Of a stretch of DNA of 64,000 bases, positions 36,135-58,658 are shown piece by piece; position 1 is the stretch's first letter; every line of letters starts with the position of its first letter. The notes under the pieces were generated by a model that did no database searches, was not told the origin of the DNA, and was given only the letters and a program-made list of their open reading frames with translations. Source of the stretch: Ruminiclostridium hungatei (lineage in GTDB: Bacteria > Bacillota > Clostridia > Acetivibrionales > DSM-1351); NCBI RefSeq assembly GCF_002051585.1, contig NZ_MZGX01000013.1, forward strand, positions 70,614-134,613, read 5' to 3'. Position numbers and translations under genes: made by a program.

Positions 36135-36485
36135 CTAAAATAGCAGTTTGCTATAAATATGCAATAATATAACGACTAAAGTTAAAATGCTTACTACTAT
36201 ATGTATATTTCTTTTTGTCAGACTGGATTTTGAATATTTCGTTAATATACCAAAGACAGTTATTATAAGTAGTAATAGTAATGACAAATATCCAAATGTA
36301 AATTTAATACTTAAGCTTGATAATAGTGAATGAAATATACCAATTGCAACGGCAAAAAAACCAATAAAGCAATGTGATTTTTTGGCAATACGCTTTATGC
36401 TATATAGTTTCGACGCTTTCAGTATACTAAAAGTTATACCTGCCATAAAAAAAAGCAATGAGAGAAATCCCGTAATTAATGACAT
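36135..36485 (-). CDS. small membrane protein (3-4 TM)
   Basis: 116 aa, strongly hydrophobic. Sits downstream of ApbE in the same orientation. Confidence 0.45.
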   Translation of the reverse strand: MSLITGFLSLLFFMAGITFSILKASKLYSIKRIAKKSHCFIGFFAVAIGIFHSLLSSLSIKFTFGYLSLLLLLIITVFGILTKYSKSSLTKRNIHIVVSILTLVVILLHIYSKLLF

Positions 36486-36503
36486 TCTGCCTCCAGAAAG
36501 TAT

Positions 36504-37469
36504 TCAATCTGCAGCATAACAACTAAAACCCCAATTCTGTTCGGTTAAGTAAAAGGATGGTTGTATGCCTTTTGTCAAATATATTTCGTTATCTTTTGTT
36601 ACCAATATTGCTTCAGCAGCACTGGATTTTTTAATCAATTGAATCCCATCCTCCAAGCCCATTACAAAGGCGGCCGTCGATAATGCATCTGCTTGCATGG
36701 AGTTCTCACAAATCACAGTAGCACTTACCATATCAGATTGTGATGGCCACCCTGTTCTATTATCCAATATATGATGATATCTCTTACTGTCAACTTCAAA
36801 ATACCTTTCGTAGGGGCCGGAGGTAACTACAGACTTATCTGAAGCTAAAACTACTCCGAAATGAACACCTCTTTGCTTATAGGGGTGTTGGATACCTATA
36901 GCCCAGTCATCCCCCTCGGGCTTCTTTCCCAATGTTTTAACATTACCTCCAAAGTTTATAAAGGCTGACTCTACACCCATTAACTTGTATAGTTCAACAC
37001 ATATATCAGCCGCAAAGCCTTTACCTATGCCTCCAAGATCAACCGCAGAGCCTTGCTTCTCAAGATAAGCCGTATTAGTTGCATTATCAATGTGCATGCT
37101 TTTGTAGCCGACATGTTCCATTAGCTCTTTTATTTCACTTTCACAAGGCACCCGGTCAAGCCTCCCACAATGTCTCCAGTAATCAATTACCGGTGCTAAT
37201 GTTATATCAAAAGCTCCGTTTGAGAGCTCAGAAAATTTATATGCCTCACTTAGAACATGAATAACCTCTGAGCTCAGATTTACCTTTTCTTTTCCAGCCA
37301 CTTCGTTTAATTTAGAAATATCACTGTCTTCTTTGAAAAAACTCATCAAATTTTCTAAACGGTTTATTTCATTAACTACCTTTTTGTATACATCAATGGG
37401 ATTTTTACAGTATATTTTCTGTTCCACAATTGTATTCATAAAATAGTCTTGAGTTTCAAAGCAATCCAT
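36504..37469 (-). CDS. apbE: FAD:protein FMN transferase (ApbE family)
   Basis: ApbE-family length and motifs (…FDITLAPVIDYW…, …SVVTSGPYERY…, …ALSTAAFV…). Confidence 0.75.
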   Translation of the reverse strand: MDCFETQDYFMNTIVEQKIYCKNPIDVYKKVVNEINRLENLMSFFKEDSDISKLNEVAGKEKVNLSSEVIHVLSEAYKFSELSNGAFDITLAPVIDYWRHCGRLDRVPCESEIKELMEHVGYKSMHIDNATNTAYLEKQGSAVDLGGIGKGFAADICVELYKLMGVESAFINFGGNVKTLGKKPEGDDWAIGIQHPYKQRGVHFGVVLASDKSVVTSGPYERYFEVDSKRYHHILDNRTGWPSQSDMVSATVICENSMQADALSTAAFVMGLEDGIQLIKKSSAAEAILVTKDNEIYLTKGIQPSFYLTEQNWGFSCYAAD

Positions 37470-37584
37470 GTTTTATTTAACCTTCCTTTTATTAATTCAC
37501 TTAAAAATAAACTGCTCTGAAAATCATTCAGCTTTATGTAGGTTCAGTTATAAAGCAACGGTTGAACTTATCCATCTGATAAGT

Positions 37585-38028
37585 TTATTTAGCGTCTGAT
37601 TGTTTCACAGTTTCGTCCGACTGGCTTACATTATCAGTTGCTTCGCTTAAAGCATTGTCAATGGCCTTAAGTATCACCTTGCTGCTATTTGTAGCTCCTG
37701 AGATAGTATCAACCTTAAGTGATTGTGCAGCAATAACCTTATCAGTAATAGCTTCGCCTTTCAGACCCCTTTCATTTTTATGCTTGTCAAGCTTGATTTC
37801 CTTAATCTTATTTCCTTCTACTGTTACACTTACGTCAGCAGCGACCAATATTGCATCATAGGAACCTTTATAAATACCATCCGGAAGCTTAGAAATATTT
37901 GGGCTTGAAATGACTATCTCCGAGATAAGCTTTTTATACTTCCAAGTTTGATATAAGTACCTTCCACCTAAAATTCCGACTGAAATCACTGCAATGCAGA
38001 CTACTCCAAGGATAACTTTCTTATACAT
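37585..38028 (-). CDS. membrane-anchored FMN-binding domain protein (flavinylation target)
   Basis: N-terminal TM helix. FMN_bind motif with flavinylated-Thr context DTISGATNSS. Confidence 0.65.
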   Translation of the reverse strand: MYKKVILGVVCIAVISVGILGGRYLYQTWKYKKLISEIVISSPNISKLPDGIYKGSYDAILVAADVSVTVEGNKIKEIKLDKHKNERGLKGEAITDKVIAAQSLKVDTISGATNSSKVILKAIDNALSEATDNVSQSDETVKQSDAK

Positions 38029-38199: not shown

Positions 38200-41100
38200 C
38201 TATATTTTGCTTAAATCTCTCCTTAAACCTTCAATGCTGCACGCCTTTGCCTCCCCACTTATAGCCTCCTGAGTATTTAACTTTTTCAGAGCCAGTCTTG
38301 CAGAAGCTTCTTTAAAATCAACCAATTCATTTGTGCTGGCAAAATTGTTTGTTTTTTCCTCTGAGTACTCATTATTATCAGCTTCTAGTGATTCATCTTT
38401 AAAAGATACCTTGTATTCTGAATTCTCAAAAGGATATGTGGGTAATGGTACCCTTCTGGCTTTATGCCAGCTCAGCTTCGAGGGATTATAACTCACACCT
38501 GTTGTGTAAAGCTTGGCCATAACCGCCAGTATTGCTGCTGCACAATTTTGACTCATACTCATTTCAATCCATTGCAAGTTATTAAATTTCATTTTTTCAA
38601 ACTCATTACCTTTAGTCTTGCTACTTCCAAGGTAAACAATCGCTTCATCTTTATTTATGATTTCCTTGCATGAATCTAAGGACAATTTTCCTCTTGCCTC
38701 TCCTCTTATACTGGATACCAGATCAAATATATTAGTCTTGTCAGCAATACCAAGAGGGGTCACAACCGGACAATTTAATTCATAACCGGTACTTTCATCC
38801 AACTCATTATTTTTATAACCAGCCTTGTTTATAAGGAATCTTGCTGCCTGCTTAATAGTAATAATTCCTGCTAAAGCACCTCCTGCTAAAATTGCATTAT
38901 CTTCACAAATAATACTTTTCAGCTTAATTCCAAAATCACATAGCAACGCGCCAAACGCATATTGCAATGCGAAGCTTTCAACAGTTTTTGCCAGCTGGCT
39001 GTCTGGACCGCCTGAGCCTTCTTTTTCAAATATTTGCATACATTTATTATAGGCTTCGGCAAACCCTGAAAAACGTTTAGCTATTTTATCACAATCTTTT
39101 TTATCCAGTTCAAAGCTGCAATCCATTACAAGACTTACCGGTGTTACTCTATTTGGATTGGAACGCCCTTTTATCAACTCTGAGCTTTCCTCACCCTTTT
39201 CAAGCTTAAGAAGCATATCCAGCAGGTGCTCTTTTGAATCAGTAACAATCGCAGTTTTAAACGTTAATTCCTTCTGGGAATTATTCATGGTAAAACAAAT
39301 AGAAGATAAATCAAGCTCAGGCTTCTTTTTCATGTGTGCTATGAGGTTTCCGGCAATTGCTTGAACTATCTTTTCATTCCTGCCCGTCAAGAAAATCACA
39401 TTGTGCTGCCTTTCCTCTTCAGACTCAGTGCCAGTATTTGTTATCAGTGGCGCCTCTTCAAGTATTACATGGGCATTTGTTCCACCAAATCCAAAGGCAT
39501 TTACTCCTGCTCTCAGCGGCGAACCCTCTGCTTTCCATTCTCGCGGCTCCTTGCCAACTACATAAAACGGTGAATTGCTAAAGTCAATATTGGTATTTGG
39601 CTCTTCAAAGTTTATTGTATGCGGGATGGTCTTATTATTTAATGCCAAAACAACTTTTATAAGGCTTATAAGACCTGCCGCCGACAACATATGACCAAGT
39701 GAGGATTTTACTGATCCTACCCCGCAGAAATTCTTTTTTGATGTAAATGAACGCATTGCTTGCGTCATACCTTCAATTTCTATGGGGTCCCCCAAAGGTG
39801 TACCTGTACCATGCGTCTCAATATATGATACTGTTTCCGGATTTATACCTGATGTGATATATGCATTTCTTATTGCCTCAGCCTGCCCCTGTGGCCTGGG
39901 TGCTGTTATTCCCTGAGAGTGTCCGTCATTGTTTATGGCTGATCCCTTTATAACTGCAAAAATATTATCATTGTCCTCTAATGCATACTTTAATGGTTTC
40001 AGAAGTACTGCACTTGCCCCTTCAGACAAAACCATACCATCAGCCCTTTTATCAAAGGGATAACAATTTCCGCTAGGAGACAGGGCAGTAACTCTGCTGA
40101 GGCTCACAAAAGGAGTTGCACTCATATTTAAGTTTACTCCCCCTGCTAAAGCCATTTCTGCCTGCCCTGTTCTCAAACTTTCGCATGCCATATGAAGAGC
40201 TACAAGTGAAGAAGAACACGCCGAGTTAACAATGAGGCTTGGACCTGAAAGGTTAAGGCAATGGCTTACCCGTGCAGCGATTTCGTTTAAACCGCTTCCG
40301 GCCACTGCATCAGCTACCAGCTGTCCAGGATTCAGAACCTGTAAAATGTTTGTCATTAGCTCCCTGCGTTCTTTTGGCTTCATGCCTTTATAAGCTTCAC
40401 TTTGTTCAAGCTTGTTTTTGAGCAGCATATATGTACGGTAGCCTGTAAAGTGCTCCATATATGAGTTTTGTTCACATCCAACAAACACTCCTATTTTATT
40501 TGACTTGTATTTTCCTCCGTATCCCGCCTGTTGAAGAGCTTCCCACGCAATTTGAAGAAATATCCTCTGTTGAGGGTCTGTGGCTTCTGCTTCATTTGGA
40601 GACATTCCGAATAACAGCGGATCAAAATCATAGGGTTTATCTATAAATCCTCCCTTATTGGTGTACGTGGTATGTAACAGTTTTTTGTCGTCGCTGTAGT
40701 TTTCCTCTGCTGACCATCTGTCTTTTGGAACCTCTTTTATAATGCATTTTCCATTTTTTAATATATCCCAGTATTCCTCCAGTGTGTCAGCGCCAGGTAT
40801 TCTTAGCCCTATACCAATGATTGCAATGTCCTGAATATCCTCCTTATTTTTATCAGCAGCATACAAAAGGTTTTCTTCAGCCACCGCCGCTATTTCTCCT
40901 TCAGAAACAGCATATGTTTTTTCAATATAATTTGTAAAAGCTTCCGGTGTCTGGTATTCAAATATTAAAGTGGGGTACAATTCGGCACCAAGTGCTTTAC
41001 TGATTCTGGCTACAATCTTTGTTACATCCAAGGAACTCAAGCCCATTTCAAGGAAATTCATGCCTTCATCAATATTATCAGCATCTGCATTAAGTTCTTC

Positions 41101-44100
41101 GGCAATAGTTCCATATACAATACTTCTTATTTCGTTTGCTGTTTTACCGGATACTTTCATTCTGCTTTCTTCATAAGCCGCCTTTGTTTCTTTTCTTAAC
41201 GGCTTGATTTCTTCCTTCGCTTCCATTAAGTCCATTATATGTATAACATTCTGATTCTTATAATTGAGAGCCTGCATGAAGGCTTCTACCGCTCCCTCGG
41301 CAGGTAAAGGTCTTAACCCTTGAGCTTTTACAGCCAGTTCAGATGCCTCCCCCGATATAATGCCTTTCCCTTTGGCCTCCCATAATGAATAATTGATGGC
41401 AAGGGATTTACCGGGCGAGTTACTTTTTGACCTGTAGCTGCTGTAACAGTCCAGAAAATAGTTTGCAGCTGCATAATCAGTAATTCCGGCACTCCACTTT
41501 TTCTTGGAAGCAGATACCGAAGACATTAATACAAAGAATTTTAAGGGCTCCTTATTTGTCACGCAATCGGTCACTATAGTTCCGTTAACCTTCGCAGCAA
41601 GTACATTTTTAAAGGTTTCCAGATCTTTATCCAGAAGCTTGTATGCCGAGCTATCCATTATTCCTGCAGCATGTACCACCCCATGAATCGGACCAAATTC
41701 TTCATTTACCTGCTTAACCATTTCAGACATCTGTGTACTGTCTGATACATCCACTGCGAAATACGCAACTTTTGCACCTTTACTCTCCAGAGATCGAATC
41801 AAAGAAATCTTTGCTGCTGCAGCTTCTGCTGAATTCTCATTCCATTCTTCTCCAGGCGGTAATTCTCCTCTTCCCGTCAGTACTAGATTCACCTGGGCAC
41901 GCTTAGCGAAGGCCTCGGCAATAGAGCCTCCTATCAGCCCTGTTCCTCCGGTTATCAGGTAGGTTTCATTGTCGTTTAAATAAATCTTATCTTCTATTAG
42001 CTTTGATATTGGAGCCTTTTCAAGTTCACGAACAAAGCGTTCCTTTTTTCGCACAGCAACAATAGCTTCTGCATTTGGTTTTTTCCCAAGCTCATCAACA
42101 ATAGTAGCTGCTGCTTCAGTTCCCGAAATATAATCTTCATTATCTATGTCCAGTACACTTGTAAATAACCCCTTAACCTCTGTATCTAACGCTTGCCCAA
42201 GTACAATTGCTATAGACTGATGAGGATTTTGTATTTCATATTCTCCGGATATGCAGAATGCTTTATTGGTAACTAAAAGCAAGCGAAGATTTTCAAGCTT
42301 ACGGTTTGAAAGGGCTTTTGCCAGCAGCAAGATACTATAGGCACTCTTATATAAAACCTCCTCCTGTTCTACTAGCCTGGACGCTTCAAGACTTTTCTCA
42401 AAGTAATTCCACATATGGATTATTGAAGATATTTCTCCCTGTATGCTATCAAGCAATGAAAAATAATCTTCCTGCCTTAAAGGATTAATCAAAAAGCTCT
42501 GTTTTCCGTCATAGCTGAATGACTTGCCATATGTAACATGATAAAGCTTATTCTTATCAGATTCTAAACTCAGCTCAAAATCCTTTATTGTATTTTCGTC
42601 CTCGGCAAACAAAATAACGGCACCATCATTTAATTTGCTAATCTGCACCAGTTTTTCAGATTTCCAGCTCCATTCATGAAACCAGTTATCAAATCTTCTT
42701 GAAAGATTTCCCGAAGCCCCGCTTCCGAAATCCGGCATATAGGTTTTTCTTTCAAATGGGTATGACGGAAGCAGTACTTTTTTATGTGAGAAATCTTTTT
42801 CGAAATCCTCCCAGTGTATTTTTACTCCAAGTGTAAATAACTTTCCAAGAGTATTCAAAAGAATATCCCAGTTGTCTTTTTTTCGATCCATAGACGCCAG
42901 AATCTGATTGCTTTCACTTGCCAGACTGCTTGCCATACCTGTCAGAATTTTGTCAGGACCGGCCTCTACAAGAATATTTATTCCCTTATCAAACATATAT
43001 TTGACACTCTGCTCAAATCTCACAGCTCCGAGTATGTGATCAAGCCAATATTGTGGTGTATACAGCTTCGTATAAATCTCGGCGGTTATGTTTGATACTA
43101 TGGGAATCTTAGGCGTATTAAAGGTAGTAACTTCAAGCTCCTTCTTAAAGGCTTCCAACATGGGTTTCATCAACGGAGTGTGGAAGGCCTGTGAAACATT
43201 AAGTCTTTTTGAACCCACACCCTTCTTTTGAAGCTCCTTCAGAAACTCATCCATAGTATCAGCTTTCCCGGATACTACCTGGTGGGTAACATTGTATCCG
43301 GCTGCCCACAAGGAGCCTTCATATGGTTTCAGAAGAGCTTCTATGCCGGAAGCCGAAGTGAATACTGCCGCCATCGCTCCTTCAACCTTAAGCTGACTCA
43401 TCAATCTTCCTCTGGCAGCCACAAGTCTTGCAGCATCCTCAAGATTTACCGCACCGGCAATACACGCTGCAGCCCATTCACCTACACTATGTCCCAACAC
43501 ATATAAAGGCTTTACCCCAAGTTCAAGCAGCAAGCTGCCTATGGAGTAATCCATGGTAAATACCACCGGCTGTGTTATATTGGTCTGAGCGAGGAATTTT
43601 TCATCAGCATTTCCACCATAAAGCAAGTCGGTTATTTTAACATCTAAATATGGATAGAAAGCATCAGAACACATATCCACATATTTTCTGAAAGCGGGAA
43701 GCTTCTCATATAATGCCCTCCCCATTCCTACGTATTGTGAACCCTGACCTGTAAACATTAAAGCTACCTTTGGAAGAGCTATTGATTTATTAATATCCAA
43801 GCTTGCTTTTTTAAGCTTTTCAACAAGGTCTGCAGTACTGTCTGCTATAGCACAGTAACGATTTTTAAAGGTAGTTCGCAGAACATTTTCAGTGAAGCAG
43901 ACATCAGCAATTGAATAGTCTTTTCTCTCTTCAAGGAAATTGGAAAGATTGTTTATTTTTTGTTCTAAAGCTGCTTCTGTATTTGCAGATAAGCACAATA
44001 TATGCCTTGGCTTTTCGTCGCATACTTCTGATAACAAATCAGCCTCAACCGGATTTTCTTCAAGGACAATATGGCAGTTTGTACCTCCGAAGCCAAAGGA

Positions 44101-47100
44101 ATTAATGGCAGCACGCCTTGCTACACCTTCTTCCACCTTCCAGTTTTTTTCTTCCTTCAAAATATAAAAGGGTGTCTCCGGGAATTTTATCATAGGGTTT
44201 GGAGTTGCAACATTTGGCTGAGGTGGCATCTTTTTATCTCTAAGCGCCATTACCACCTTCATAAAGCTTGCTATTCCTGCTGCGCTTAGCAGATGTCCGA
44301 TATTTGCCTTAACTGATCCGACTGCAATCATGTTTTTGCCTAAATTCCAATTTCTATAAGCATTATCAAGAGCCCTTATCTCACTTGGGTCACCAATTTT
44401 AGTTCCTGTCCCATGTGTTTCAACATATTGAATACCGGCCGGACTGAAATCGTTTTGGCAGTAGAGTGATTCTATAACGTCTCTCTGTCCGTCAGGGTTA
44501 GGGGCCATAACTCCAATTGAATGCCCGTCGTTATTCATTGAGCTCGCTTTTATTACAGCAAGAATATCATTCCTATCTTCGATAGCCTTTTTAAGAGGCT
44601 TGAGCATAATCAGACCGGCTCCCTCACCAGGAACAAAGCCATCTGCATCCGCATCAAAGATTTTTGATGAACTGCTCACCGATAGGGCACCTGCATTGCT
44701 GAAATATATGTAAGGTGTAGGTGTAAGTAAAAGATTGATTCCACCTGCTATGGCCATTTCACATTCACCTCTCTTTAGCGCCTCACACGCCAGATGAATA
44801 GTAACAAGAGAGGATGAGCAGGCTGTGTCCAGCACTAACGACGGTCCTTTAAAATTGAACTCCTGAGATGCCCTTGCAGCAATCATATTCAAGATATTAT
44901 CCACAAGGATGTTGGTGTGCGCTTCGGTCACTCCCAATCTGTTTTTCCATTCCTCCATAATTGAATCCTGCTGCTCTTTTGAAAGTAATGCAAAGCTCTC
45001 GAAATTCTGCAAATCCATTTTATTCAGTGTTCTCAAATGGTACTCATTATATAAATTTGTACCTGCGCCTATATATAACGCAACCTTTCTGCCCTCAACC
45101 TTTTGGCGGGAATAGCCTGCTCTTTCCAGCAGTTCGAAAACCAATTCAAGAATTATCCGTTGCTGAGGGTCCATTATCTCAGCCTCTTTATCTGGTATAT
45201 TAAAAAGCCCCGCATCAAAGTCATATACATCCTTTATAAACGCTCCCGAGCGGCAGTATGTTTTACCGAATTCGGGTGAGGAACTGTAATAATCATCAAT
45301 ATTCCACCGTTCTTTTGGAATGTCGCCTATACTGCATTTGCCCTTTAATATATTATTCCAGAATTCTTCGGGATTTGAAGCGTCAGGGAAACGGCAGGCC
45401 ATTGAGATGACAGCTATATCATCATTCTCATCTGAATTTCTATTACCTGCTGTCTTATCCAAAAACGAGTTTTTATCCTTTAATTCTTCATTGTTATGGA
45501 TATTCAGAATATATTGTTCCATATCATTGATGGTACTGCACTTAATTAATAAATCATGTGTAAGCTTTAAAGCAAGTTCATCTTCAATAAGGCCTAATAC
45601 CTGAATAGCTTTTACTGAGGTGCCTCCCATAGAAAGAAAAGGTTGGTCATAAGCAATGGTGCTGGCAGGTCTTTCCAAAACCCTGGACCAGATTCCGCAT
45701 ATGGTTTCAGCAAGTCCCGGCCTATTTACCACTATCTCGGACGTTTCCTCCATGGTTTCATGCTTCAGTTCGGCAGCGGTAATTACCTTTCCCGCATATT
45801 CGTTATTTCTGAAGGCTTCCACCATTGCGAAACGTTGTATTTTCCCGCTTGTGGTTTTTGGTATCAAAGGTATTGACACCACATAATCAATAGGTATTCC
45901 AAATATTTCATTGACATGCTTTAGAATTTTTGAGTAAAAGGGTTTAGCCCGCTCATCCTTAATGTGAAGAGTGGAAAACAAAGCCACTTTTTCTCTCCCT
46001 TCTGTTTCATCGTGCCATCCGCAAGCTACAACCTTTCCCGGTTCGACGCCTTCCAGCTCTTCAATTACATCCTCTATATCATGTGCATAAAAATTTTGTC
46101 CGTTAACAAATATTATGTCCTTTATGCGCCCAACCACTGTGAGGCGGCCATCCAGCATAAACCCGGTATCACCTGTTTTTAACCAACCCTCCTGAAAGGA
46201 TGCTCTGTTGGCCTCAGGATTATTTATATAGCCGGAGGTAACGTTATCTCCTCTGATCTGTATTTCACCCACTGTACCCTCAGGTACTACAGAACCCTTT
46301 TGATCCACTATTCGGACCTCGGTGCCATTTACAGGATAACCCTCGTCAGCTAAAAGCAATGCATTTTTGAGTTTTCTATCTACATATTTCACTTTTGCCT
46401 TCGACACAAGTACCTGTCTGTCTACGCTGTGCACCAGAGGCTCTTCAAATGGTATGGGAAAGCTCACAGCCAGGCAGGCCTCAGCCATCCCGTAAACTGT
46501 ATACATGGCACTTTTCTTCAGTCGGCAAACTGATAACTTTTCCATAAACTCTTCCGCCAAAGATACAGATATTGGTTCAGCACCATTACATATATATTTC
46601 AAGCATGACAAATCCAATTTTTCAAGCAGTTCGGGCTTAATTCTGCTCAATACCAGCTTGCACCCAAAATTCGGTGTACCTGTGATTGTAATACGATATT
46701 TGGAAATAAGCTCCAACCATTGATTAGGCCGCTTTATGAATTTATACGGTGTCATATTGAATTGAGCCATTCCAAGAGCTGTAATGCTAAGGTGGAAACC
46801 TATCAGCCCCATATCATGATGGTACGGCATCCACCCAAGACACCTGTCCTCACTGGTAAAATTGGCACTTGCTATAATTGCCTCTACATTTGTTAATAGG
46901 TTGCCATGAGTTAAGATAACACCTTTAGGAGTATTGGTGCTTCCCGAACTAAACTGAATGTATGCTGTTGAACCTTTTTCCGCAAGGTCAGCTTCTCCAC
47001 CTTCACTGCTTATATCGAAAGTTAAAACATCTTCAAATTCCATTCCGCTGATTCCTATAATTCTATTGAGCTCATCGCTGCTTTCCTTCAGATAACTATC

Positions 47101-47526
47101 AGACAAAATCAGCGGTTTTTCCAGTACATTCCATACTGCCTCCAGCTTCTTCAAGGATGCATTTAATGCTCTGGTAGAGGTAGGATAAATAAGAGGAGCC
47201 GGGATAATCCCCCCCAATATGCATGCCCAGAAGGTAATGATAAAATCTAAATTATTGTTTAGTACCAATAAAACATACTGCCCTTTTTTTATTCCTGCCT
47301 TTTGCATTCCTCCTAAACGCAGCAGAGCTTTTTGAAGTATTTCTTCGTACAGAAGGAATTGCTCCGAATCATCATTTTGTATGAAAGTTATTCCTTTATC
47401 TTTTTGATTTTGTGCAGAATCAATCAGCAAATATGCAAGATTTGCCTTGCTACTGTATATTCCCGTCACATCGGCTCCTTTTGCCTGTGACAACCTTATT
47501 CCCTTATTTGTTTTTATATTTTTCAT
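38200..47526 (-). CDS. type I polyketide synthase with N-terminal fatty-acyl-AMP ligase loading domain: FAAL-ACP-KS-AT-KR-ACP-KS-(degenerate AT-like C-terminus)
   Basis: FAAL/AMP-binding motifs (FSSGSTNTPKGV, GYPVNGTEV, YRTGD-like WLKTGD). ACP FLSMGGTSVKAI. KS1 DTACSSSLVTIHLA. AT GHSVGEWAAAC. KR Rossmann GGTGLIGGSIA. ACP2 LEMGLSSLDVTK. KS2 NSACSSSLVALHMA. The last ~450 aa lack a GHSxG. Confidence 0.95.
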   Translation of the reverse strand: MKNIKTNKGIRLSQAKGADVTGIYSSKANLAYLLIDSAQNQKDKGITFIQNDDSEQFLLYEEILQKALLRLGGMQKAGIKKGQYVLLVLNNNLDFIITFWACILGGIIPAPLIYPTSTRALNASLKKLEAVWNVLEKPLILSDSYLKESSDELNRIIGISGMEFEDVLTFDISSEGGEADLAEKGSTAYIQFSSGSTNTPKGVILTHGNLLTNVEAIIASANFTSEDRCLGWMPYHHDMGLIGFHLSITALGMAQFNMTPYKFIKRPNQWLELISKYRITITGTPNFGCKLVLSRIKPELLEKLDLSCLKYICNGAEPISVSLAEEFMEKLSVCRLKKSAMYTVYGMAEACLAVSFPIPFEEPLVHSVDRQVLVSKAKVKYVDRKLKNALLLADEGYPVNGTEVRIVDQKGSVVPEGTVGEIQIRGDNVTSGYINNPEANRASFQEGWLKTGDTGFMLDGRLTVVGRIKDIIFVNGQNFYAHDIEDVIEELEGVEPGKVVACGWHDETEGREKVALFSTLHIKDERAKPFYSKILKHVNEIFGIPIDYVVSIPLIPKTTSGKIQRFAMVEAFRNNEYAGKVITAAELKHETMEETSEIVVNRPGLAETICGIWSRVLERPASTIAYDQPFLSMGGTSVKAIQVLGLIEDELALKLTHDLLIKCSTINDMEQYILNIHNNEELKDKNSFLDKTAGNRNSDENDDIAVISMACRFPDASNPEEFWNNILKGKCSIGDIPKERWNIDDYYSSSPEFGKTYCRSGAFIKDVYDFDAGLFNIPDKEAEIMDPQQRIILELVFELLERAGYSRQKVEGRKVALYIGAGTNLYNEYHLRTLNKMDLQNFESFALLSKEQQDSIMEEWKNRLGVTEAHTNILVDNILNMIAARASQEFNFKGPSLVLDTACSSSLVTIHLACEALKRGECEMAIAGGINLLLTPTPYIYFSNAGALSVSSSSKIFDADADGFVPGEGAGLIMLKPLKKAIEDRNDILAVIKASSMNNDGHSIGVMAPNPDGQRDVIESLYCQNDFSPAGIQYVETHGTGTKIGDPSEIRALDNAYRNWNLGKNMIAVGSVKANIGHLLSAAGIASFMKVVMALRDKKMPPQPNVATPNPMIKFPETPFYILKEEKNWKVEEGVARRAAINSFGFGGTNCHIVLEENPVEADLLSEVCDEKPRHILCLSANTEAALEQKINNLSNFLEERKDYSIADVCFTENVLRTTFKNRYCAIADSTADLVEKLKKASLDINKSIALPKVALMFTGQGSQYVGMGRALYEKLPAFRKYVDMCSDAFYPYLDVKITDLLYGGNADEKFLAQTNITQPVVFTMDYSIGSLLLELGVKPLYVLGHSVGEWAAACIAGAVNLEDAARLVAARGRLMSQLKVEGAMAAVFTSASGIEALLKPYEGSLWAAGYNVTHQVVSGKADTMDEFLKELQKKGVGSKRLNVSQAFHTPLMKPMLEAFKKELEVTTFNTPKIPIVSNITAEIYTKLYTPQYWLDHILGAVRFEQSVKYMFDKGINILVEAGPDKILTGMASSLASESNQILASMDRKKDNWDILLNTLGKLFTLGVKIHWEDFEKDFSHKKVLLPSYPFERKTYMPDFGSGASGNLSRRFDNWFHEWSWKSEKLVQISKLNDGAVILFAEDENTIKDFELSLESDKNKLYHVTYGKSFSYDGKQSFLINPLRQEDYFSLLDSIQGEISSIIHMWNYFEKSLEASRLVEQEEVLYKSAYSILLLAKALSNRKLENLRLLLVTNKAFCISGEYEIQNPHQSIAIVLGQALDTEVKGLFTSVLDIDNEDYISGTEAAATIVDELGKKPNAEAIVAVRKKERFVRELEKAPISKLIEDKIYLNDNETYLITGGTGLIGGSIAEAFAKRAQVNLVLTGRGELPPGEEWNENSAEAAAAKISLIRSLESKGAKVAYFAVDVSDSTQMSEMVKQVNEEFGPIHGVVHAAGIMDSSAYKLLDKDLETFKNVLAAKVNGTIVTDCVTNKEPLKFFVLMSSVSASKKKWSAGITDYAAANYFLDCYSSYRSKSNSPGKSLAINYSLWEAKGKGIISGEASELAVKAQGLRPLPAEGAVEAFMQALNYKNQNVIHIMDLMEAKEEIKPLRKETKAAYEESRMKVSGKTANEIRSIVYGTIAEELNADADNIDEGMNFLEMGLSSLDVTKIVARISKALGAELYPTLIFEYQTPEAFTNYIEKTYAVSEGEIAAVAEENLLYAADKNKEDIQDIAIIGIGLRIPGADTLEEYWDILKNGKCIIKEVPKDRWSAEENYSDDKKLLHTTYTNKGGFIDKPYDFDPLLFGMSPNEAEATDPQQRIFLQIAWEALQQAGYGGKYKSNKIGVFVGCEQNSYMEHFTGYRTYMLLKNKLEQSEAYKGMKPKERRELMTNILQVLNPGQLVADAVAGSGLNEIAARVSHCLNLSGPSLIVNSACSSSLVALHMACESLRTGQAEMALAGGVNLNMSATPFVSLSRVTALSPSGNCYPFDKRADGMVLSEGASAVLLKPLKYALEDNDNIFAVIKGSAINNDGHSQGITAPRPQGQAEAIRNAYITSGINPETVSYIETHGTGTPLGDPIEIEGMTQAMRSFTSKKNFCGVGSVKSSLGHMLSAAGLISLIKVVLALNNKTIPHTINFEEPNTNIDFSNSPFYVVGKEPREWKAEGSPLRAGVNAFGFGGTNAHVILEEAPLITNTGTESEEERQHNVIFLTGRNEKIVQAIAGNLIAHMKKKPELDLSSICFTMNNSQKELTFKTAIVTDSKEHLLDMLLKLEKGEESSELIKGRSNPNRVTPVSLVMDCSFELDKKDCDKIAKRFSGFAEAYNKCMQIFEKEGSGGPDSQLAKTVESFALQYAFGALLCDFGIKLKSIICEDNAILAGGALAGIITIKQAARFLINKAGYKNNELDESTGYELNCPVVTPLGIADKTNIFDLVSSIRGEARGKLSLDSCKEIINKDEAIVYLGSSKTKGNEFEKMKFNNLQWIEMSMSQNCAAAILAVMAKLYTTGVSYNPSKLSWHKARRVPLPTYPFENSEYKVSFKDESLEADNNEYSEEKTNNFASTNELVDFKEASARLALKKLNTQEAISGEAKACSIEGLRRDLSKI

Positions 47527-47573: not shown

Positions 47574-48740
47574 TTAAGCGTCTCTTTTAAAAAGGTTGCT
47601 CTTGGAATACTTACTAGTAATGGCTATGTATAGTATTAAAATCATAAAAATTATAAAGCTTATGCTGAATATATAATTATTTCCTAGATATCGCATTGCT
47701 CCAGATGATAAAAACGGACCGGCTGCTGAACCGATTCCGTAAGCAAAAGTAAATAAAGCTACCCCCGGCATTAATTCTTCCTGTATGAGATCCTGTACAG
47801 ACAGAGATAGAGATAGTGGATATATGGGCCCGATTGTAAAACCAGCAATAAATGAGAAGATTAATTTGCTGCCGAAGCTGTTAAAATACATGACACCTAT
47901 AATAGCAAACAATGAAAAGAATATAGTTAACCCAAGACATTTTTTACGTCCAAATTTATCTGCCAAATAAGTTACAGGTATGGTTCCAATTATGCTCCCG
48001 ATTACAAATATCCCTAATGCGTATCCTACCTGTGAGAGCCCGAAATTAAGCCGGAGCATAAAGAGAGGATAGAGAGCTACCAGAGTTGTCTCTGAAAAAC
48101 CATATGCAAAGGCTCCAAATAAAGCCAGAGTAATTTTAGAAAAGATCTTTCCCTCACTATAGGTTGGTATTGTCAGCAAATTTTTTAATTTGAAATTAAT
48201 AAAAACAGCAGCACTGCAAAGACTGACGGAGCCCATTAAAAAAGCTATCCAGGCAGCGCATTCATAGAGCATTGGGCCAACTAAAGAACTAATAACAAAC
48301 CCTACAGCAAAACAAAATGAATATATGCCGCTTACCAACGCTTTGTTGCCGCTGTCAGTGGCGTTTTGCATGGCTGTTTGAATACCCACCAAATTAAGGC
48401 TGACACCTGCCCCCATAAGACCCATAAGTAAAAACCATAAGGCCCTGTTCTCTGATAAGGGAAAGCCTATTGAACAAATAGCTGCTAAAATGAGCCCTAA
48501 TATTAGTATTTTTCTAATATCTTTTCCTCTTTGCTTTTTATAAATAAATATTGAACCAAGCGCCATAAAGAGAAAATATGAGGAAGAAATTGCACCAACC
48601 CATACCTCTGAAACATTATTTCTTGTCATATGCGTAGTTGCAAGAGGGTTTATCACCCCCATTGCAAGTCCTACCATTAATGCTATACAATACATAGCCC
48701 ATTTATTGTTTCCAATCAGTTTATCAAATTGTTCTCTCAA
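47574..48740 (-). CDS. MFS transporter (likely product exporter)
   Basis: 12 TM helices. MFS motif A-like GRKKCLG. Confidence 0.85.
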   Translation of the reverse strand: MREQFDKLIGNNKWAMYCIALMVGLAMGVINPLATTHMTRNNVSEVWVGAISSSYFLFMALGSIFIYKKQRGKDIRKILILGLILAAICSIGFPLSENRALWFLLMGLMGAGVSLNLVGIQTAMQNATDSGNKALVSGIYSFCFAVGFVISSLVGPMLYECAAWIAFLMGSVSLCSAAVFINFKLKNLLTIPTYSEGKIFSKITLALFGAFAYGFSETTLVALYPLFMLRLNFGLSQVGYALGIFVIGSIIGTIPVTYLADKFGRKKCLGLTIFFSLFAIIGVMYFNSFGSKLIFSFIAGFTIGPIYPLSLSLSVQDLIQEELMPGVALFTFAYGIGSAAGPFLSSGAMRYLGNNYIFSISFIIFMILILYIAITSKYSKSNLFKRDA

Positions 48741-48795: not shown

Positions 48796-51700
48796 TTAAC
48801 CGGTGGTAATTGAACTTTTCTTACTTTGTAATAAAGTTTTAAACATTGCTGTCTGTTGAGATCCGAACCAATACATATCTTGTTTGCCATAGACCTTTAT
48901 GGCTTCACCGGTAATATAATCTGACATAGCTGATGCAAGGAATACAGCAGTATCTGAGATTTTTTCAGGAGGAATAGCCCTGTTTTTTAACGCTTTGGGC
49001 GCCATATCAGTGTCTACCAGTGCAGGACATATGGCGTTTACCTGAATGTTGTGGGGCTTTAGCTCCTCAGCTAACGATTTGGTCAGACCGAGCACTGCAT
49101 GTTTTGATGCGGCATATGCACTCATAAGCGGATAACCGATAAAGGAGGAATCTGACCCCATATTAATAATCTTTCCTTGATTGTTCTTTATGAAATGTGG
49201 TATTACAGCTCTGCAGAAATTATATGTCCCAAAGAGATTTACATCTATTATTTTTTTCCACTCCTCCGGTTCAATATCATTTATAGCTGAAAACTTTGTA
49301 ATGCCTGCGTTGTTTACCAACACATCAATTTTTCCATACTCTCTCAAAACCAGGTCCATAGCCTTATCTACATCTGCCTGCCTGCTTATATCCGCAGGAA
49401 TAATCATTGATCTCACACCAAGCTGCTGCATTTCCTGCGCCGTTTGTTCCAATTGCTCCCTGGTCCTTGAAACAATTACAATCTCGGCCCCCTCTTTCGC
49501 CATTGTAAGAGCAATACTTCTGCCGATGCCTCTTCCCCCGCCAGTTATAATTACTACTTTGTCCGAAAGCAAGCCCTCCCCGTTTTTCCTGTTCTGGAAT
49601 GGTTTGTTCCTGTAAGTTTGTGAGGTCTCTTCCTCTACAAAGCTGATAAGTTTTGTAATACTCTCTATGTACTTTTCACCCAACTGCTTAATTGTTTCAA
49701 TCTTAAATAAATTTTTTGAGTACTCAATTTCAAGATTTAACTTTCCATCCACCACTGAGAAGAAAAACTCAATAACGGATATCCTTTTTTGTTCAGGAAC
49801 AGAATATCTTCTATCCATTCCGGCTTTGGAGAACTCGAAATTATCAAATTTCGGAACGTCCCTGTTGCCGAGGTAATTTGCTCTAACAGGAGTCATTTTG
49901 GTATCAGGATACATATACACCGGTAAATAATCCGAAACCATGTCATAGCTTATTCCATTCATAGGAATAGTTTCTAATGTATTCTTTACTTTCTCAACCA
50001 AGCTTCCCCAGGCCTCATCCTGTATAAAATCAATACCCATTGGAAAATTAACTGCGAAATTTCCTGCAGTCTGAAAGAAAGTATTATTAGCATCAATCTC
50101 CCTGCCATGGACCCTGTGGCTTATTATAACTTTTGATTGCTTGTATCGCTCTCCCAGCAGCTTATAAAGAGGAGCAAGCAAAATAGGATAAACATTACTT
50201 CCAAAGAACCTCTTTGCTTTACTTAAGATTATCGAAGTCTTATGGCTGTCCAGCACAAATTCAACTGTGGCTGCAGACCCTTCGTCATTAGCTCCCAGAT
50301 TGAAATCTGCTGGAATTCTGAATACATCTTCTTTAAGTGGGAACATTTCCTTCCAATATGCTACATAATCTTGTAATTTCTTATCCTTCTCATGCTCTAC
50401 ATGTTCTACAAATTCTCTGTAAGACCTTGAAGCCTGAAGTTTTATATCTTGCTCAGATAAAATATTATAGTAAATCTGCCATATCTCTTTAAACAACAAA
50501 TTATTTGTTACTACATCTGAAATAAGATGATGACCCACAAAAGCCATATCGTACATACTGTTTGAGATCTTAACCGCTATAACCTTCCATAGAGGCCATT
50601 TATCGACATCAAAACTTCGTATGGCATCATTTATCAGTTCATCCACAGCCTGATCTATTTGCTCTTTATCCATGTGAGCGGCATCAAAATACTCCACGTT
50701 TAAATAGTTGCCCTGTGGTAATATTTTTTGCACCCATTGGGAATCCTTCTGACACAATATACTTCTTAGGGCATCATGTCTGTTTGCAAGCATATTTACC
50801 GCTTTGTTAAAAGTAAGGTAATCCAGAGGCTGCTTAAATAAAAATCTCGTAAACCCGGTCCAATTGTATGGGAAATCAAAGAAATTCATTAACCAGCGCT
50901 GTGCCGGTGCCAGTGGAATAATTGCTTCCTGCTCTTGATTATAAACGTCTTGAAGCTTCTCTTCCTTGACCTGATTGATTACAGCCATCTCATTTGTTTT
51001 TACTGCTCCATATTTGTTTCTATATACCTCCTGCATTGCCCGCCTGTCAAGCTTTCCGTTTGGATTCTTCGGAAGGCTTTGCAGCCATTCTATTCTGTGT
51101 GGAATCATGTAATGGGGCAGCTTATTACCAATATGGTCCTTTATTTCAGAATCCGAAGTATTTCTGCCTGACAAATAAGCCACAAGCTGACTTTGTCCCT
51201 CATTGCCGTCAACTACAATGACTGCCGCCTCATTTATATTACTATGGCTGTTGAGTACCGTCTCTATTTCACCCAGTTCAATCCTGAAGCCTCGTATTTT
51301 CACTTGATTGTCAATGCGACCATGATACTCAAAGCTTCCATCTTCTCTTTTTCTTGTCAAATCCCCAGTGCGATACAAGAAGTCTCCCGGTATTTCACTG
51401 AAAGGATTGGGTCTGAAGGACTCGGCAGACTTTTCAGGATTTTTCAGATAACCCTTTGCAAGCTGTATGCCGCCTATCCATAGTTCACCGATTTCTCCTA
51501 CTTCCTTGATTCTCATATTTTCATCAAGATTTAAGATGTAAACATTGTCTACAGGCTTTCCGATTGGAATTTGATTTTCTCCCTCAGCACCCGGTCTCTT
51601 TTCAATGATATGGTATGTAACATCGATAGAAGCTTCTGTGGGACCGTACAAGTTTGCCAGCTGAGTGGCCATTCCGTGCTTGTCTATCCATTCCTGGACA

Positions 51701-54700
51701 TAGTACATAGGCAGAGCCTCTCCGCTAAAAATCAGCCAGCGCAAATCCTTAAAGCTGAAAGCCTCCTGTTCCAAAGCATGCACGAATTCACCAAAAAGTG
51801 AAGGTACAAAATGCATTATATTTATTTTTGTATCAACAAGCCACTGAGCAAGAGCCCAGGGGTTTTTGACTATCTCCTTACGAACAGGGCATACCGTACC
51901 ACCGTACATTAATGGCCAGAAGAGTTCCCATACAGATATATCAAAGCAGCAGGAAGTTTTTTGTGCTACCCTTTCTCCCAGCTTTAAATTGAATATCTTT
52001 TGATGCCATACTAAGCGGTTCATATAACCAAGATGATTGAGCATTACTCCTTTTGGATTTCCGGTAGAGCCTGAAGTATACAGTACTACCATTAAATCCT
52101 CCGGTCTGCTTTTGTATTCCGGCTCAACTGCCGGATACTCCATCCAGGCGACTGTGTCAATCAACGTTGAGGCTTTGAATTCTTTGCTGTTAGTTACATT
52201 GTCAAGGGAAATAACCTTTTCGATACCGTTGCAGGCTTCTATCAAAGCGTTTAACTGCCCCAGCAAGGAATCTTCTGTAATTAGTATTTTAATCTCAGAA
52301 TGGTTAATAATATATTGAATCCTTCCGGCTGGATATGATGGATCTACAGGTACGTAAGCAGCCCCTGCTTTGAGAATTCCAAGCATACCTAAAAGCATCG
52401 ATGAACCCGGCAAAGTCATAATACCAACCAGCGACCCACTTCCAAGCCCCTGACTGTTCAGGTAATTTGCAAGCCTGTTGGTAATGCGTTCCAGTTCTGA
52501 ATAAGTTATGCTCTGATTCTCAAAAAGTATCGCTTGTGCATTTGGAGTTAATTTACATTGTTGAACAATTTTCAAGTAAGGAATTTGTATATCCGGGATT
52601 TCTCTATTTTCATTAATAGCAATACTGCTATCATCCAGCAGGTATGACATCTCTCTTAGCGTCCCGCAGGTAAACATACTGTTTCTGTCCAGCTCTTTAT
52701 TTGTTTTACTTAGCCTTGTAACCAGTCGGATGCGTTCAAGAGAATCTATGCCAAGCTCTGAATCAATATCCTTGTCCAAATCCCGGGCTGTAAACTCTCT
52801 TTGGCATATCTCCCCGGCTATCCGGCAGAGCTCTGCTTCAACCGCTTTGCTGAAAATTGCTGACGTTCTCGGAACTTGCTTACTCTGCTCAACTGCTGCA
52901 CTAATCTTTGCAAGCTCATAAATGTTAGATATAAATCTATTCATGTGTATATCAATATAAGCTTCATCAAAAAAAGAACTGTCGTAGTTTGAAGTGAGCA
53001 ATATTCTGCCCTGAAACAATTCCACAAGGATATCAATAGTTCCGGGATTTGTGCAGGTATATGCCTCATAATCCTCTACTTCCAAATTACTGCCATACCC
53101 GGCTTTTATATTTGTATTTCCAATAAAAGAAAGATAAAGGTTGGATTTTACAGAAGAACGGATGATATCAGCAACAGTTTCAGGCATTTTGCCATCTATT
53201 AACATCTCATTCTCTTTTGTTGCAAAGGCAGCTTGAAAGGTTTGTGCCCTGTCAAGCCCTGACGATAATTTACTCTTTATCTCTGCTTTGACTTTTTTTA
53301 TCAAGTCTTCCCAGCTTTCATCAGTATTTTTCATATCAAAGCTTAAAGCCATGTTCTGAGCAAATGAACTTAAAACCCCTGTGGCATCTGCATTGGGATA
53401 TACCTTTCCGCCTGTGGGCAGGTTAATAATTATTTTGTTTTCACTTTCTTTTAACTGTTTGATGGTTTTTAAATATGCGCTGACAAAAAGTACAAATAAT
53501 GAAACCTTCCATATCTTCGTATTTGAGAAAAGCTTTTCTGTATTGTTTTCATCAATCCAAAATTTCTTGATTTTTGTTTTTATAGGCTTAAATGGCTCCG
53601 GCAATTCAAGCTTTTTATCTTTTCCATATGGATTAAAAAAATATTTTTCCTTACCCTGCTGTACTAAATAGCTCTTTAGTGCAGCATCCTCTTGTGTACT
53701 TTTCCAAGAATTCAACTCATTAACTAAATTGTTATACTCATATACCGAAATCTCAGGAGGCAAGCTAGCCTTTGTACCATTAAGCTTTGCAGAATAAATT
53801 TCCAAAAGCTCTCTTAATAACTGTTGATTGCCAAGCCCATCTGTAATAAGATGAATAATTGACAAGACTATATAAAAGCTTCTGTCACCTGTTTGTAGTA
53901 CAGAAATGTTATGTAAAGGCCAATTGAAAATATCAAATTTACTATTTAGATGTTCCTCATAACTCTCTTTTAAATACTTATCCTGCATACTACTATTTAA
54001 ATAACGTATATCTTCCACTTTTATATCAGGTAAAGTGATATGGTTCAATACCTTTTGCATGTAGCCCTTAAAGCTCTTTGCCTTTGGTGCCACCTCAAAT
54101 ACTATCCGCAATGCCGGATGGCGGTAAATCAGTTCTTTCCATGCAGCCTGAAGACATAATATATTTAATTCACCCTTTACCATTACTCCTGAGCAAATTG
54201 TAAGTGTAGATATTGCCTGGTAGCATGTCAGAAAGGCATATTGTGAATTCAGAACTTCCAGATATTCTTGCTGTCCTTCTATGTCATATTCGGGTTGCTC
54301 CATTGAAGCTTTTTCACCTGTCTGATCTTGTGAGTTTGTTTCCTGCCAGTTTTCAAATATTTCAGCAATCTCTCCTACCGTTTGCAGTGTCATCATTGAA
54401 GCTACGGAATTTTCAGCTGTAAATTTCTCCATTTGTCCGGCCGGAATTAAATTTATCATCTCATTCATCACTGTTATCATCTTGATTGAATCAAGCCCCA
54501 GATCTGCCTCGAGATACATGTCATTGTCTATCGAATCAAGTGAATGCCCTGTAACCTTGGATATGAGTTCATAAATCGTTTGTCTGATATTTGCTTCAGC
54601 CGTAACTTCTTTGTTACTGTCTGCTCTTGCCGTAACTTCTTCGTTCCTGCTGCTCTGAAACTTGTCGGAATTATTTTCGTTTTGATTCATTTGTTCATCA

Positions 54701-55623: not shown

Positions 55624-56808
55624 TTAATCCTCTGAAGCCTTGAAGTTATATATCGGTTTGATAATTCGGTTGATTTCAACAGTATCCTGAATGTTGTCAA
55701 TTATCTCTTCGATGGGCTTGTATGCTGACGGAGCTTCATCCAGTGTAACCGCCGACACTGAGGTTGTATATATCCCATCCATAGATTTTTTAAACTCTTC
55801 CAGGGACAATTTAAGTCTTGCCTGTTTTCGGCTCATTAACCGGCCTGCGCCATGAGGGGCTGATTGGTTCCAATCAGCATTTCCCTTGCCAGTAGCGATA
55901 ATACTTCCATCCCTCATATTCACAGGGATTATTACCCTTTCGCCTTCCTTGGCAGATATGGCGCCTTTTCTCAAAATCATTTCATCCATATCTATATAAT
56001 TATGAATTGTAGTAAAGCTATCTATAACATTGAAATTCATCTTGCGAATAATAACCTCCGCAATAGCCTTCCTGTTGAATTCTGCAAATACCTGAGCAAT
56101 GCGCATATCATGAATATAGTCTTCAAAAGCCTGACCCTGGACATAGGCTAAAGAGCTGTTGATTTTAACCCTTTCTTTTTCTATTTCAGACTGAATACAC
56201 TGCTCTCTTCCTTGAGATTTTAATACTGCAATAATCTCATCATTGCTCTTTTTGACTATTTCTTTGGTTGCTCTGCTTTGATAGTACTCAGCTATTTGCT
56301 TTCCCAAGTGACGACTGCCGGAATGTACAACCAAGTATACATTTCCACCATCATCAACATTCATTTCTATGAAGTGATTTCCGCCTCCAAGTGTGCCAAT
56401 ACTCAGTGATGCCCTTTTTAAATCAACCTGCTCTTTACACCTTAAGGCATGGATATCCACAAATGCATTATATTCATGAGGATTAACACGTACGTCAAAC
56501 CCACTTGGAACGCAGCTTCGTATTACTTCATCAAGCCTCTTAAAATTCATCGCTGTTTTTCCCAATATGCTGACAAACATTCCACAGCCGATGTCAACTC
56601 CCACCAGGTTCGGAACTATTTTATCCCTTATGGTCATTGTCGTTCCAATAGTACAGCCTGCTCCCGCATGAGTATCAGGCATTATTCTGATTATGCTTTG
56701 TTTAACAAACTCCTGATTACAAAGCTCCAGTATTTGCCCTGCTGCCTTATCTTCCAAATTATCTGTAAATACTTTAGCTATATTGTATTTCCCTTTGATT
56801 TTAATCAT
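55624..56808 (-). CDS. rtcB: RtcB-family RNA 3'-phosphate/2',3'-cyclic phosphate ligase
   Basis: RtcB metal/GTP site motifs IRIMPDTHAGAGCTIG, DIGCGM, GGNHF, HSGSRHLG, and C-terminal NQSAPHGAGR. Confidence 0.85.
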   Translation of the reverse strand: MIKIKGKYNIAKVFTDNLEDKAAGQILELCNQEFVKQSIIRIMPDTHAGAGCTIGTTMTIRDKIVPNLVGVDIGCGMFVSILGKTAMNFKRLDEVIRSCVPSGFDVRVNPHEYNAFVDIHALRCKEQVDLKRASLSIGTLGGGNHFIEMNVDDGGNVYLVVHSGSRHLGKQIAEYYQSRATKEIVKKSNDEIIAVLKSQGREQCIQSEIEKERVKINSSLAYVQGQAFEDYIHDMRIAQVFAEFNRKAIAEVIIRKMNFNVIDSFTTIHNYIDMDEMILRKGAISAKEGERVIIPVNMRDGSIIATGKGNADWNQSAPHGAGRLMSRKQARLKLSLEEFKKSMDGIYTTSVSAVTLDEAPSAYKPIEEIIDNIQDTVEINRIIKPIYNFKASED

Positions 56809-56893
56809 TATATCCCCTCATTTCTGTAAATATAAAAAGTCTCCCAAGCTTATATATTTTTAGCAAGAGAGACTCAATAAAAACCTGTTTGCA

Positions 56894-58615: not shown

Positions 58616-58658
58616 CGTCTACTGACAAAATATAAATTCATAACAGACAATTCCCAGG

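Follow-up and report, generated by a model that had tools for sequence, protein, structure and literature searches.

A polyketide synthase of Ruminiclostridium hungatei that ends in a ketosynthase and a dead acyltransferase, and the module it probably shares with a neighbouring peptide synthetase

A stretch of 64,000 nucleotides of the Ruminiclostridium hungatei genome (RefSeq assembly GCF_002051585.1, contig NZ_MZGX01000013.1, positions 70,614 to 134,613 of the forward strand), here called the window, carries a gene for a large polyketide synthase (PKS) and, two genes upstream on the same strand, one for a nonribosomal peptide synthetase (NRPS). The PKS is encoded by a single, uninterrupted open reading frame (ORF) that occupies exactly positions 38200-47526 of the minus strand, starts with ATG and specifies 3108 amino acids. 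The product is 100% identical to a database protein of Ruminiclostridium hungatei, which is named "erythronolide synthase, modules 5 and 6". This name is a mis-annotation.

Domain organization of the PKS

Pfam matches and motifs divide the PKS into a ligase resembling fatty acyl-AMP ligases (FAALs), an acyl carrier protein (ACP) domain, a ketosynthase (KS), an acyltransferase (AT), a ketoreductase (KR), a second ACP and a second KS, followed by a tail of 415 residues. The original prediction, made from the DNA sequence alone, had read the order FAAL-ACP-KS-AT-KR-ACP-KS, and the agreement between the two is far beyond chance. The domains that precede the tail are:

45802..47379, minus strand: FAAL-like acyl-AMP ligase loading domain, residues 50-575 (Pfam AMP-binding over 50-433, 7e-53)
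45508..45708, minus strand: ACP1, loading carrier, residues 607-673 (Pfam PP-binding; motif FLSMGGTSVK)
44203..45423, minus strand: KS1, residues 702-1108 (Pfam ketoacyl-synt over 702-981, and Ketoacyl-synt_C)
43807..44202, minus strand: KS1-AT1 linker, residues 1109-1240 (Pfam KAsynt_C_assoc, CurL-like_PKS_C, RhiE-like_linker)
42823..43758, minus strand: AT1, active and malonyl-type by its motifs, residues 1257-1568 (Pfam Acyl_transf_1, 2.9e-50)
41392..42624, minus strand: psiKR and KR, residues 1635-2045 (Pfam Beta-ketacyl_N for psiKR, 1635-1752; Pfam KR, 1855-2045)
40915..41145, minus strand: ACP2, residues 2128-2204 (Pfam PP-binding and ACP_SdgA_C; motif GMNFLEMGLSSLD)
39448..40830, minus strand: KS2, the terminal ketosynthase, residues 2233-2693 (second stretch of Pfam KS families, ending at 2641-2693)

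Conservation was counted in an alignment of 52 full-length PKS relatives. KS1 has the motifs DTACSSS, which includes the Cys, HGTGT and KANIGH, and these are conserved across the relatives. AT1 reads FTGQGSQY, LGHSVGEW and SQAFHT in the R. hungatei protein, and its GQGSQ, GHSxGE and (Q/H/E)AFH are kept in all 52. The KR (Pfam KR, 5e-40) shows TGGTGLIGG and YAAAN in the translation, and the carrier behind it, ACP2, has its phosphopantetheine serine. By these motifs module 1, which comprises KS1, AT1, the KR and ACP2, is a complete cis-AT module. In KS2, the Cys of NSACSSS and both His motifs, HGTGT and KSS(I/V/L)GH, are retained in 52 of 52 relatives, and with a mean identity to the query of 0.71 this is the most conserved domain of the PKS. 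KS2 is catalytically intact as judged from its conserved residues.

The loading ligase is followed directly by ACP1, fused to it in the same chain (Pfam). Its best NCBIfam matches are fatty acyl-AMP ligase subfamilies, all of them below their cut-offs, and no named equivalog was found above cut-off in the NCBIfam scan. Among solved structures in the PDB, the McyG loading adenylation (A) domain (4r0m) came first with 336 bits, followed by the FAALs 3kxw and 3pbk at about 238 bits and then by FadD32, FadD23 and FadD28. The FAAL call is a clade assignment, and the starter is probably a fatty acid. From a FAAL start the original prediction had derived a lipidated polyketide-amino-acid hybrid; the FAAL-clade matches fall below their cut-offs, and McyG ranks above the FAALs.

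The C-terminal tail

The end motif of KS2, GFGGTNAHVILEEAP, finishes at residue 2693. What follows had been described in the original prediction as some 450 residues that resemble a KS-AT linker or an inactive AT without GHSxG. The AT-like character and the missing GHSxG are borne out; the length is 415 residues, and the tail is more than a linker. It is made up of four parts:

39157..39447, minus strand: KS2-AT linker subdomain, residues 2694-2790 (Pfam CurL-like_PKS_C, 2.2e-09)
38473..39156, minus strand: AT0, truncated, dead acyltransferase core, residues 2791-3018 (hhalign to AT1, motif loss, Foldseek)
38398..38472, minus strand: post-AT linker, residues 3019-3043, motif LPTYPFE (alignment with LPSYPFE after AT1)
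38203..38397, minus strand: C-terminal extension, residues 3044-3108, a candidate docking element (low conservation, many gaps)

When the tail is scanned alone, the sole Pfam matches are to two KS-AT linker families, the CurL-like and the RhiE-like, within its first 80 residues. This linker subdomain is the best-conserved part of the tail and is modelled with a predicted local distance difference test score (pLDDT) above 90. In a profile-profile comparison by hhalign, the family tail aligned with the family linker plus AT1 over 328 columns with a probability of 99.9% and an E value of 1.6e-33; when the KS ends were included, the E value was 4.5e-72. The tail and the AT1 region of the same protein are also paired by BLASTP (E 3e-06), which places ICEDNAILAGGALAG of the tail opposite LGHSVGEWAAACIAG of AT1, so that ICEDNAILAGG faces LGHSVGEWAAA. 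A second BLASTP segment pairs the post-AT linkers, LPTYPFE in the tail and LPSYPFE after AT1.

Further support came from structure prediction. An AlphaFold model of the tail, built from a 21-sequence alignment, has a mean pLDDT of 75.5, is disordered solely in its first 11 residues and at residues 341-394, and ends in a helix at 398-414. Foldseek matched this model to PDB entries with E values of about 1e-14, TM-scores of 0.62-0.65 and identities of 12-14%. The matches are the KS-AT didomains of DEBS modules 2, 3 and 5, CurL, Lsd14 and CalA3, and also the isolated ATs of ZmaA and salinomycin AT9.

The active site of this AT is gone. GQGSQ is replaced by DCSFE and GHSVG by CEDNA, and none of the 52 aligned family members has the GHSxG serine in the tail. 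In the R. hungatei tail the nucleophile position holds Asp; among the relatives, 51 have G, D, E or R there and one has a gap. In the profile alignment about 90 residues of AT0 are deleted, which correspond to the small, ferredoxin-like subdomain that bears the (H/Q)AFH catalytic His. Neither the Ser nor the His, which the original prediction had left to be checked, is therefore present. With a mean identity to the query of 0.35, where AT1 reaches 0.61, AT0 is the least conserved folded region of the PKS, and a structural remnant would be expected to look like this. The tail itself is kept in every family member, at 328-427 residues, and the L, P, P and F of LPTYPFE are invariant in the 21-sequence alignment. 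By sequence and by model, the tail is a KS-AT linker, a truncated AT without Ser or His, a post-AT linker and about 65 variable residues, for which a role in docking may be proposed.

The partner synthetase

The NRPS and the gene between it and the PKS are laid out as follows:

48796-54978, minus strand: NRPS, 2060 residues, two genes upstream of the PKS (Pfam)
54343..54960, minus strand: tandem ACPs of the NRPS, residues 7-88 and 131-212 (Pfam PP-binding, two stretches)
48892..54186, minus strand: remainder of the NRPS, with a condensation (C) domain at 265-690, a thiolation (T) domain at 716-778, an A domain at 806-1309, an epimerization (E)-clade domain at 1351-1787 and a FabG-like short-chain dehydrogenase/reductase (SDR) at 1807-2029 (Pfam)
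47574..48740, minus strand: major facilitator superfamily (MFS) transporter, between the PKS and NRPS genes (Pfam MFS_1; present in 9/9 comparison loci)

As originally predicted, the NRPS begins with tandem ACPs. These are 74% identical over 82 residues and both contain DLGLDSIK. The order ACP-ACP-C-T-A-E-like-SDR is non-canonical, since the canonical order is C-A-T with a thioesterase (TE) or reductase (R) domain. Between the A10 motif and the E1 motif of the next domain there is room for just some 35 residues, so that the sole peptidyl carrier is the one before the A domain.

The specificity code of the A domain, DIWHISLIDK, is Ser-type. It was read by anchoring motifs to the numbering of PheA, for which a sequence internally consistent with the published positions was used. 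D(I/V)WH(I/V/L/A)SLIDK is found in 93 of 95 aligned NRPS relatives, and in three the match to the classical code for serine, DVWHLSLIDK, is exact. Glycine, to which LgrA as the top PDB match might point, was rejected as the substrate because the LgrA score sums two A domains and the code is Ser-type. The C domain carries IHLITDG. It was also considered as a heterocyclization domain, which would form a thiazoline or oxazoline for oxidation by a flavoprotein; this is ruled out by the pattern, which is xHxxxDG and not DxxxxD.

The domain that follows the A domain aligns over its full length with the E domains of TycA, GrsA and TycB in the PDB at 1e-23 to 1e-30, and with solved C domains at 1e-08 to 1e-13. 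In the BacC and PvdL chains it pairs with the E part, while the first C domain pairs with the C part. An ordinary terminal C domain was ruled out, as the PDB comparison groups the domain with E domains. Its HHLISD, the HHxxxD motif, is conserved and its HRVHGRE lies opposite the leGHGRE of the BacC and PvdL E domains. By sequence the domain is closest to solved E domains, and it may act as an epimerase or as a helper in release. The terminal SDR is most similar to 3-ketoacyl-ACP reductases.

Relatives in other genomes

Nine other loci were compared with that of the window, ten in all:

PKS, NRPS and MFS core: 10/10 loci
Sfp-type phosphopantetheinyl transferase (PPTase): five loci (Clostridium kluyveri, C. 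beijerinckii, C. pasteurianum, Bacillus cytotoxicus and the Cellvibrio-like contig L007)
Type II thioesterase of 235 residues: three loci (C. kluyveri, C. beijerinckii, C. pasteurianum)
Discrete AT: two loci (B. cytotoxicus, L007)
FMN_bind gene directly after the PKS: four Clostridia, including the window locus
Nitroreductase-like protein of 385-396 residues: three loci (Paenibacillus sophorae, Methylocaldum, L007)
MMPL transporter: three loci (B. cytotoxicus, Methylocaldum, L007)

The PKS-NRPS-MFS cassette is present in Clostridia, Paenibacillus, Bacillus cytotoxicus, methanotrophs, cyanobacteria and myxobacteria, with the MFS gene located between or after the two synthase genes. PKS variants without the KR (about 2650-2700 residues) and NRPS variants without the SDR also exist. 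The scanned ORFs of the window (non-overlapping, 2941 to 62824) yielded neither a TE nor a discrete AT nor a PPTase, in line with the original prediction. As relatives encode these three functions within the cluster, R. hungatei must supply them from elsewhere in its genome.

In Methylocaldum, B. cytotoxicus and the Cellvibrio-like contig (L005-L007) the cluster is flanked by MMPL/RND-type transporters. The two proteobacterial loci among these have DUF1329/TP_0789-like genes, and Methylocaldum has DUF1302 in addition. The MMPL/RND and DUF1329/TP_0789-like genes hint that the product could be an envelope lipid and not a diffusible antibiotic.

In C. beijerinckii (L009) the NRPS is called as two ORFs of 1436 and 600 residues, which overlap within the E-like domain, and an insertion sequence (DDE_Tnp_1) lies between the FMN_bind gene and the TE and PPTase genes. 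This cluster may be decaying, or the split of its NRPS may be a sequencing frameshift.

The split module and the direction of synthesis

No carrier domain follows KS2 on the PKS polypeptide. The original prediction took this to mean that the chain is extended on a carrier supplied in trans, and the relatives in which the two proteins are fused agree. Here, P0211, P0213 and P0226 run ...KS-linker-ACP-C-T-A-E and P0202 runs linker-AT-like-ACP-C-T-A-E, all ending in the C-T-A-E cassette without a TE. KS2 is expected to elongate because its Cys and both His are kept in every relative. Since the PKS ends in KS2 and a dead AT, the last extension is expected to take place on the carriers of the neighbouring NRPS.

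In the Firmicutes the gene for the NRPS is the upstream one of the two. The original prediction held that the biochemical order, PKS then NRPS, is the reverse of this, and several lines of evidence agree. A loading ligase and an ACP stand at the start of the PKS itself, while the NRPS opens with carriers and a C domain; the domain order of the fused relatives is colinear with the proposed direction; and the genes are ordered PKS-NRPS-MFS in Methylocaldum marinum, the Cellvibrio-like soil contig and Pendulispora brunnea. These three non-Firmicute loci argue that the Firmicute gene order is not the biochemical one. Taken together, the PKS and NRPS very probably form a mixed cis-AT/trans-AT hybrid line in which one module is split over two proteins. 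Much less confidence attaches to any specific product.

In the pathway that we propose, the FAAL-clade ligase would charge ACP1 with a carboxylic acid that is probably a fatty acid, and module 1 would add one malonyl unit and reduce it to give a 3-hydroxyacyl chain. Module 2 would have as its carriers the tandem ACPs that open the NRPS, and KS2 would extend the chain on them. Malonyl would reach these ACPs in trans, through AT1, a discrete AT encoded elsewhere or FabD, and the FabG-like SDR at the C-terminus of the NRPS would reduce the new beta-keto group. The C domain would then amidate the chain onto serine held by the T domain, which is unusually placed before the A domain. The E-clade domain may epimerize the product or aid its release; release could alternatively involve a type II thioesterase encoded elsewhere, or cyclization. 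An N-acyl-serine-type lipid would finally be exported by the MFS protein.

Several points weigh against this scheme. A discrete AT that could supply the NRPS ACPs with malonyl is absent both from the scanned ORFs of the window and from 7/9 comparison loci, and the domain map of the NRPS contains no release domain (TE or R). The starter may be something other than a plain fatty acid, because the closest solved relative of the ligase, McyG, loads an aryl acid. Module 1 could act iteratively, as the micacocidin enzyme MicC does, which would change the chain length. In the E-clade domain, Arg replaces the first Glu of EGHGRE, which is a catalytic residue in E domains; the eight commonest variants at this site in the family all read SHRx(H/N)GR(D/E/N). 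Last, no paper that assigns a product to the PKS-NRPS-MFS family was found in a literature search of incomplete coverage, with MIBiG not compared.

Other readings of the locus were weighed. The best of these is a ping-pong route, in which the C domain couples the 3-hydroxyacyl chain, received directly from ACP2, to seryl-S-T, KS2 then extends the N-acyl-seryl chain on the tandem ACPs, and the SDR reduces the result to a statine-like unit. Such a route gives a role to the odd position of the T domain and to the terminal SDR, and two relatives, P0072 and P0073, which have a Pfam Condensation domain and about 550 unassigned C-terminal residues after ACP2, suggest that ACP2-type carriers can feed C domains. 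The fused relatives, however, end in ...KS-linker-ACP-C-T-A-E, with no KS after the serine module. The route also needs two hand-overs from protein to protein where the split module needs one, and it still requires both a release step and a trans-acting AT. We consider it quite improbable.

KS2 could instead be a non-elongating transfer domain, in which case the tandem ACPs would just receive the product of module 1 and only one ketide would be added. The absence of a functional cis AT for this module, and of any discrete AT from the scanned ORFs of the window, would fit. KS0 domains, however, typically lose a His, whereas KS2 has its Cys and both His motifs throughout the family; it is, moreover, the domain that the PKS conserves best, and relatives do encode a discrete AT. 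The chance that KS2 does not elongate is accordingly slim.

An acyltransferase that has diverged and is still active, or another AT-fold enzyme with a nucleophile other than serine, might be read into the tail from its universal retention, its confidently AT-like fold by Foldseek and its few invariant positions, but either is scarcely credible for a region in which the residue at the nucleophile position is not conserved, the His-bearing subdomain is deleted, the GQGSQ oxyanion motif is lost and conservation is the lowest of all folded regions. Equally hard to credit is that the gene order of the Firmicutes is the order of synthesis and that the NRPS hands its product to the PKS, for the NRPS has no starter-loading function while the PKS does, and both the reversed loci and the colinear KS-ACP-C-T-A-E fusions speak against it.

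The split module therefore stands as the preferred explanation. A more far-reaching proposal can be attached to it, which we think possible but doubtful: the ACP-C-T-A-E cassette would be an undescribed, TE-free termination module with T before A, whose E-like domain, always paired with a serine-specific A domain and lacking the canonical Glu, is not an epimerase but releases or beta-eliminates the N-acyl-seryl-S-T intermediate. Combined with the KS-AT0 split module and with FMN_bind/ApbE or a nitroreductase-like protein as flavoprotein partner, it would define lipids of a new class, derived from serine, exported and spread over at least four phyla.

Comparison with known systems

The closest described relative is the CkluC cluster of Clostridium kluyveri, whose PKS is 54% identical over its full length and has the same architecture; the NRPS-MFS-PKS-FMN_bind set is shared. 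It differs in having a PPTase and a type II TE within the cluster and a single N-terminal ACP on the NRPS. Behnken & Hertweck 2012 (PMC3250452) amplified KS fragments from C. hungatei, the best matches of which were the homologues of B. cytotoxicus, A. cellulolyticus and C. kluyveri. The same work lists CkluC as a putative, cryptic trans-AT PKS/NRPS hybrid, without a domain-level analysis or a product (PMC3250452). C. saccharoperbutylacetonicum has a homologous NRPS (P0142); according to PMC11063209, Li et al. 2020 linked a product of that organism only to a different NRPS. A comparison with characterized clusters, for which the original prediction had allowed, was made through the literature only, and none matched.

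A break between subunits that falls directly behind a KS is typical of trans-AT PKSs; in cis-AT systems most junctions are of the ACP/KS kind (PMC9113145). The split modules of the leinamycin, bacillaene and macrolactin trans-AT systems share with the R. hungatei PKS the break after the KS, the linker without a working AT and the need for an extender unit supplied in trans. The R. hungatei protein differs in that it also bears a complete cis-AT module and in that no discrete AT gene was found at its locus. AT remnants after the KS of AT-less modules are well known, and in trans-AT PKSs they are usually shorter. The R. hungatei tail keeps an AT core of about 230 residues and the post-AT linker, and not just the flanking subdomain of about 100 residues.

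FAAL-ACP-KS-AT-KR-ACP starter units occur in the micacocidin synthase MicC and in the cyanobacterial olefin synthase Ols, and the first 2200 residues of the R. hungatei PKS have this same order. Ols then continues with a sulfotransferase and a TE, and MicC feeds NRPS modules of the heterocyclization (Cy) type, whereas in the R. hungatei PKS the next domains are a second KS and a dead AT. In the mycobacterial FAAL-PKS-NRPS-MmpL pathways, such as that of the glycopeptidolipids, an NRPS with domains of the E type couples amino acids to a 3-hydroxyacyl chain primed by a ligase, as in the scheme proposed here. MMPL-family transporters, moreover, stand beside the cluster in relatives. The R. hungatei system, in contrast, has one serine module, lacks a reductase release domain and is paired with an MFS exporter, and the homology observed is that of generic domains only.

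Neighbouring genes

Three genes 3' of the PKS are possibly part of the same operon:

36135..38028, minus strand: FMN_bind protein, ApbE flavin transferase and a 116-residue protein with four transmembrane helices (Pfam, NCBIfam)

The FMN_bind protein is membrane-anchored and has an SGAT flavinylation motif. The four helices of the 116-residue protein are predicted, and it contains several His residues. A terminator-like hairpin follows the three genes at 36119-36095. In other phyla the place of the FMN_bind protein is occupied by the nitroreductase-like protein, an indication that a step dependent on flavin is conserved.

Immediately upstream of the NRPS, at 55624-61017 on the minus strand, are genes for an RtcB RNA ligase and an SPFH/Band 7 protein, and two adjacent ORFs that match WCX; one of the latter matches is weak and only one of the two ORFs has a WYL domain. 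This group looks like an RNA-repair or stress module and is not conserved beside the cluster in the relatives examined.

Farther away, at 15895-24548 on the minus strand, is a set of large genes unrelated to the cluster, with a GC content of 0.46-0.51 that is above the 0.37-0.42 of the cluster. One encodes an S8 peptidase of 1241 residues. Others encode a 706-residue protein with a weak CHAT-domain match, below the Pfam cut-off, and a 679-residue protein with an eCIS_core domain and a C-terminal nuclease domain resembling CDI-toxin EC869. The 151-residue ORF after the last of these could encode an immunity protein.

Significance

Both a dead AT and a module split over two proteins are already known from other assembly lines, and their occurrence in R. 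hungatei leaves the understanding of such systems unchanged. What the analysis does define is the PKS-NRPS-MFS set as a well-conserved orphan cassette, with no product found for it in the literature. Its predicted product would be a ligase-primed, twice-extended acyl chain in amide linkage to serine. The more unusual element lies outside the PKS coordinates, 38200-47526, in the serine module of the NRPS. With its T domain before the A domain, its E-like end, no TE and an occurrence in at least four phyla, this module is the part of the system that is likeliest to teach something new.

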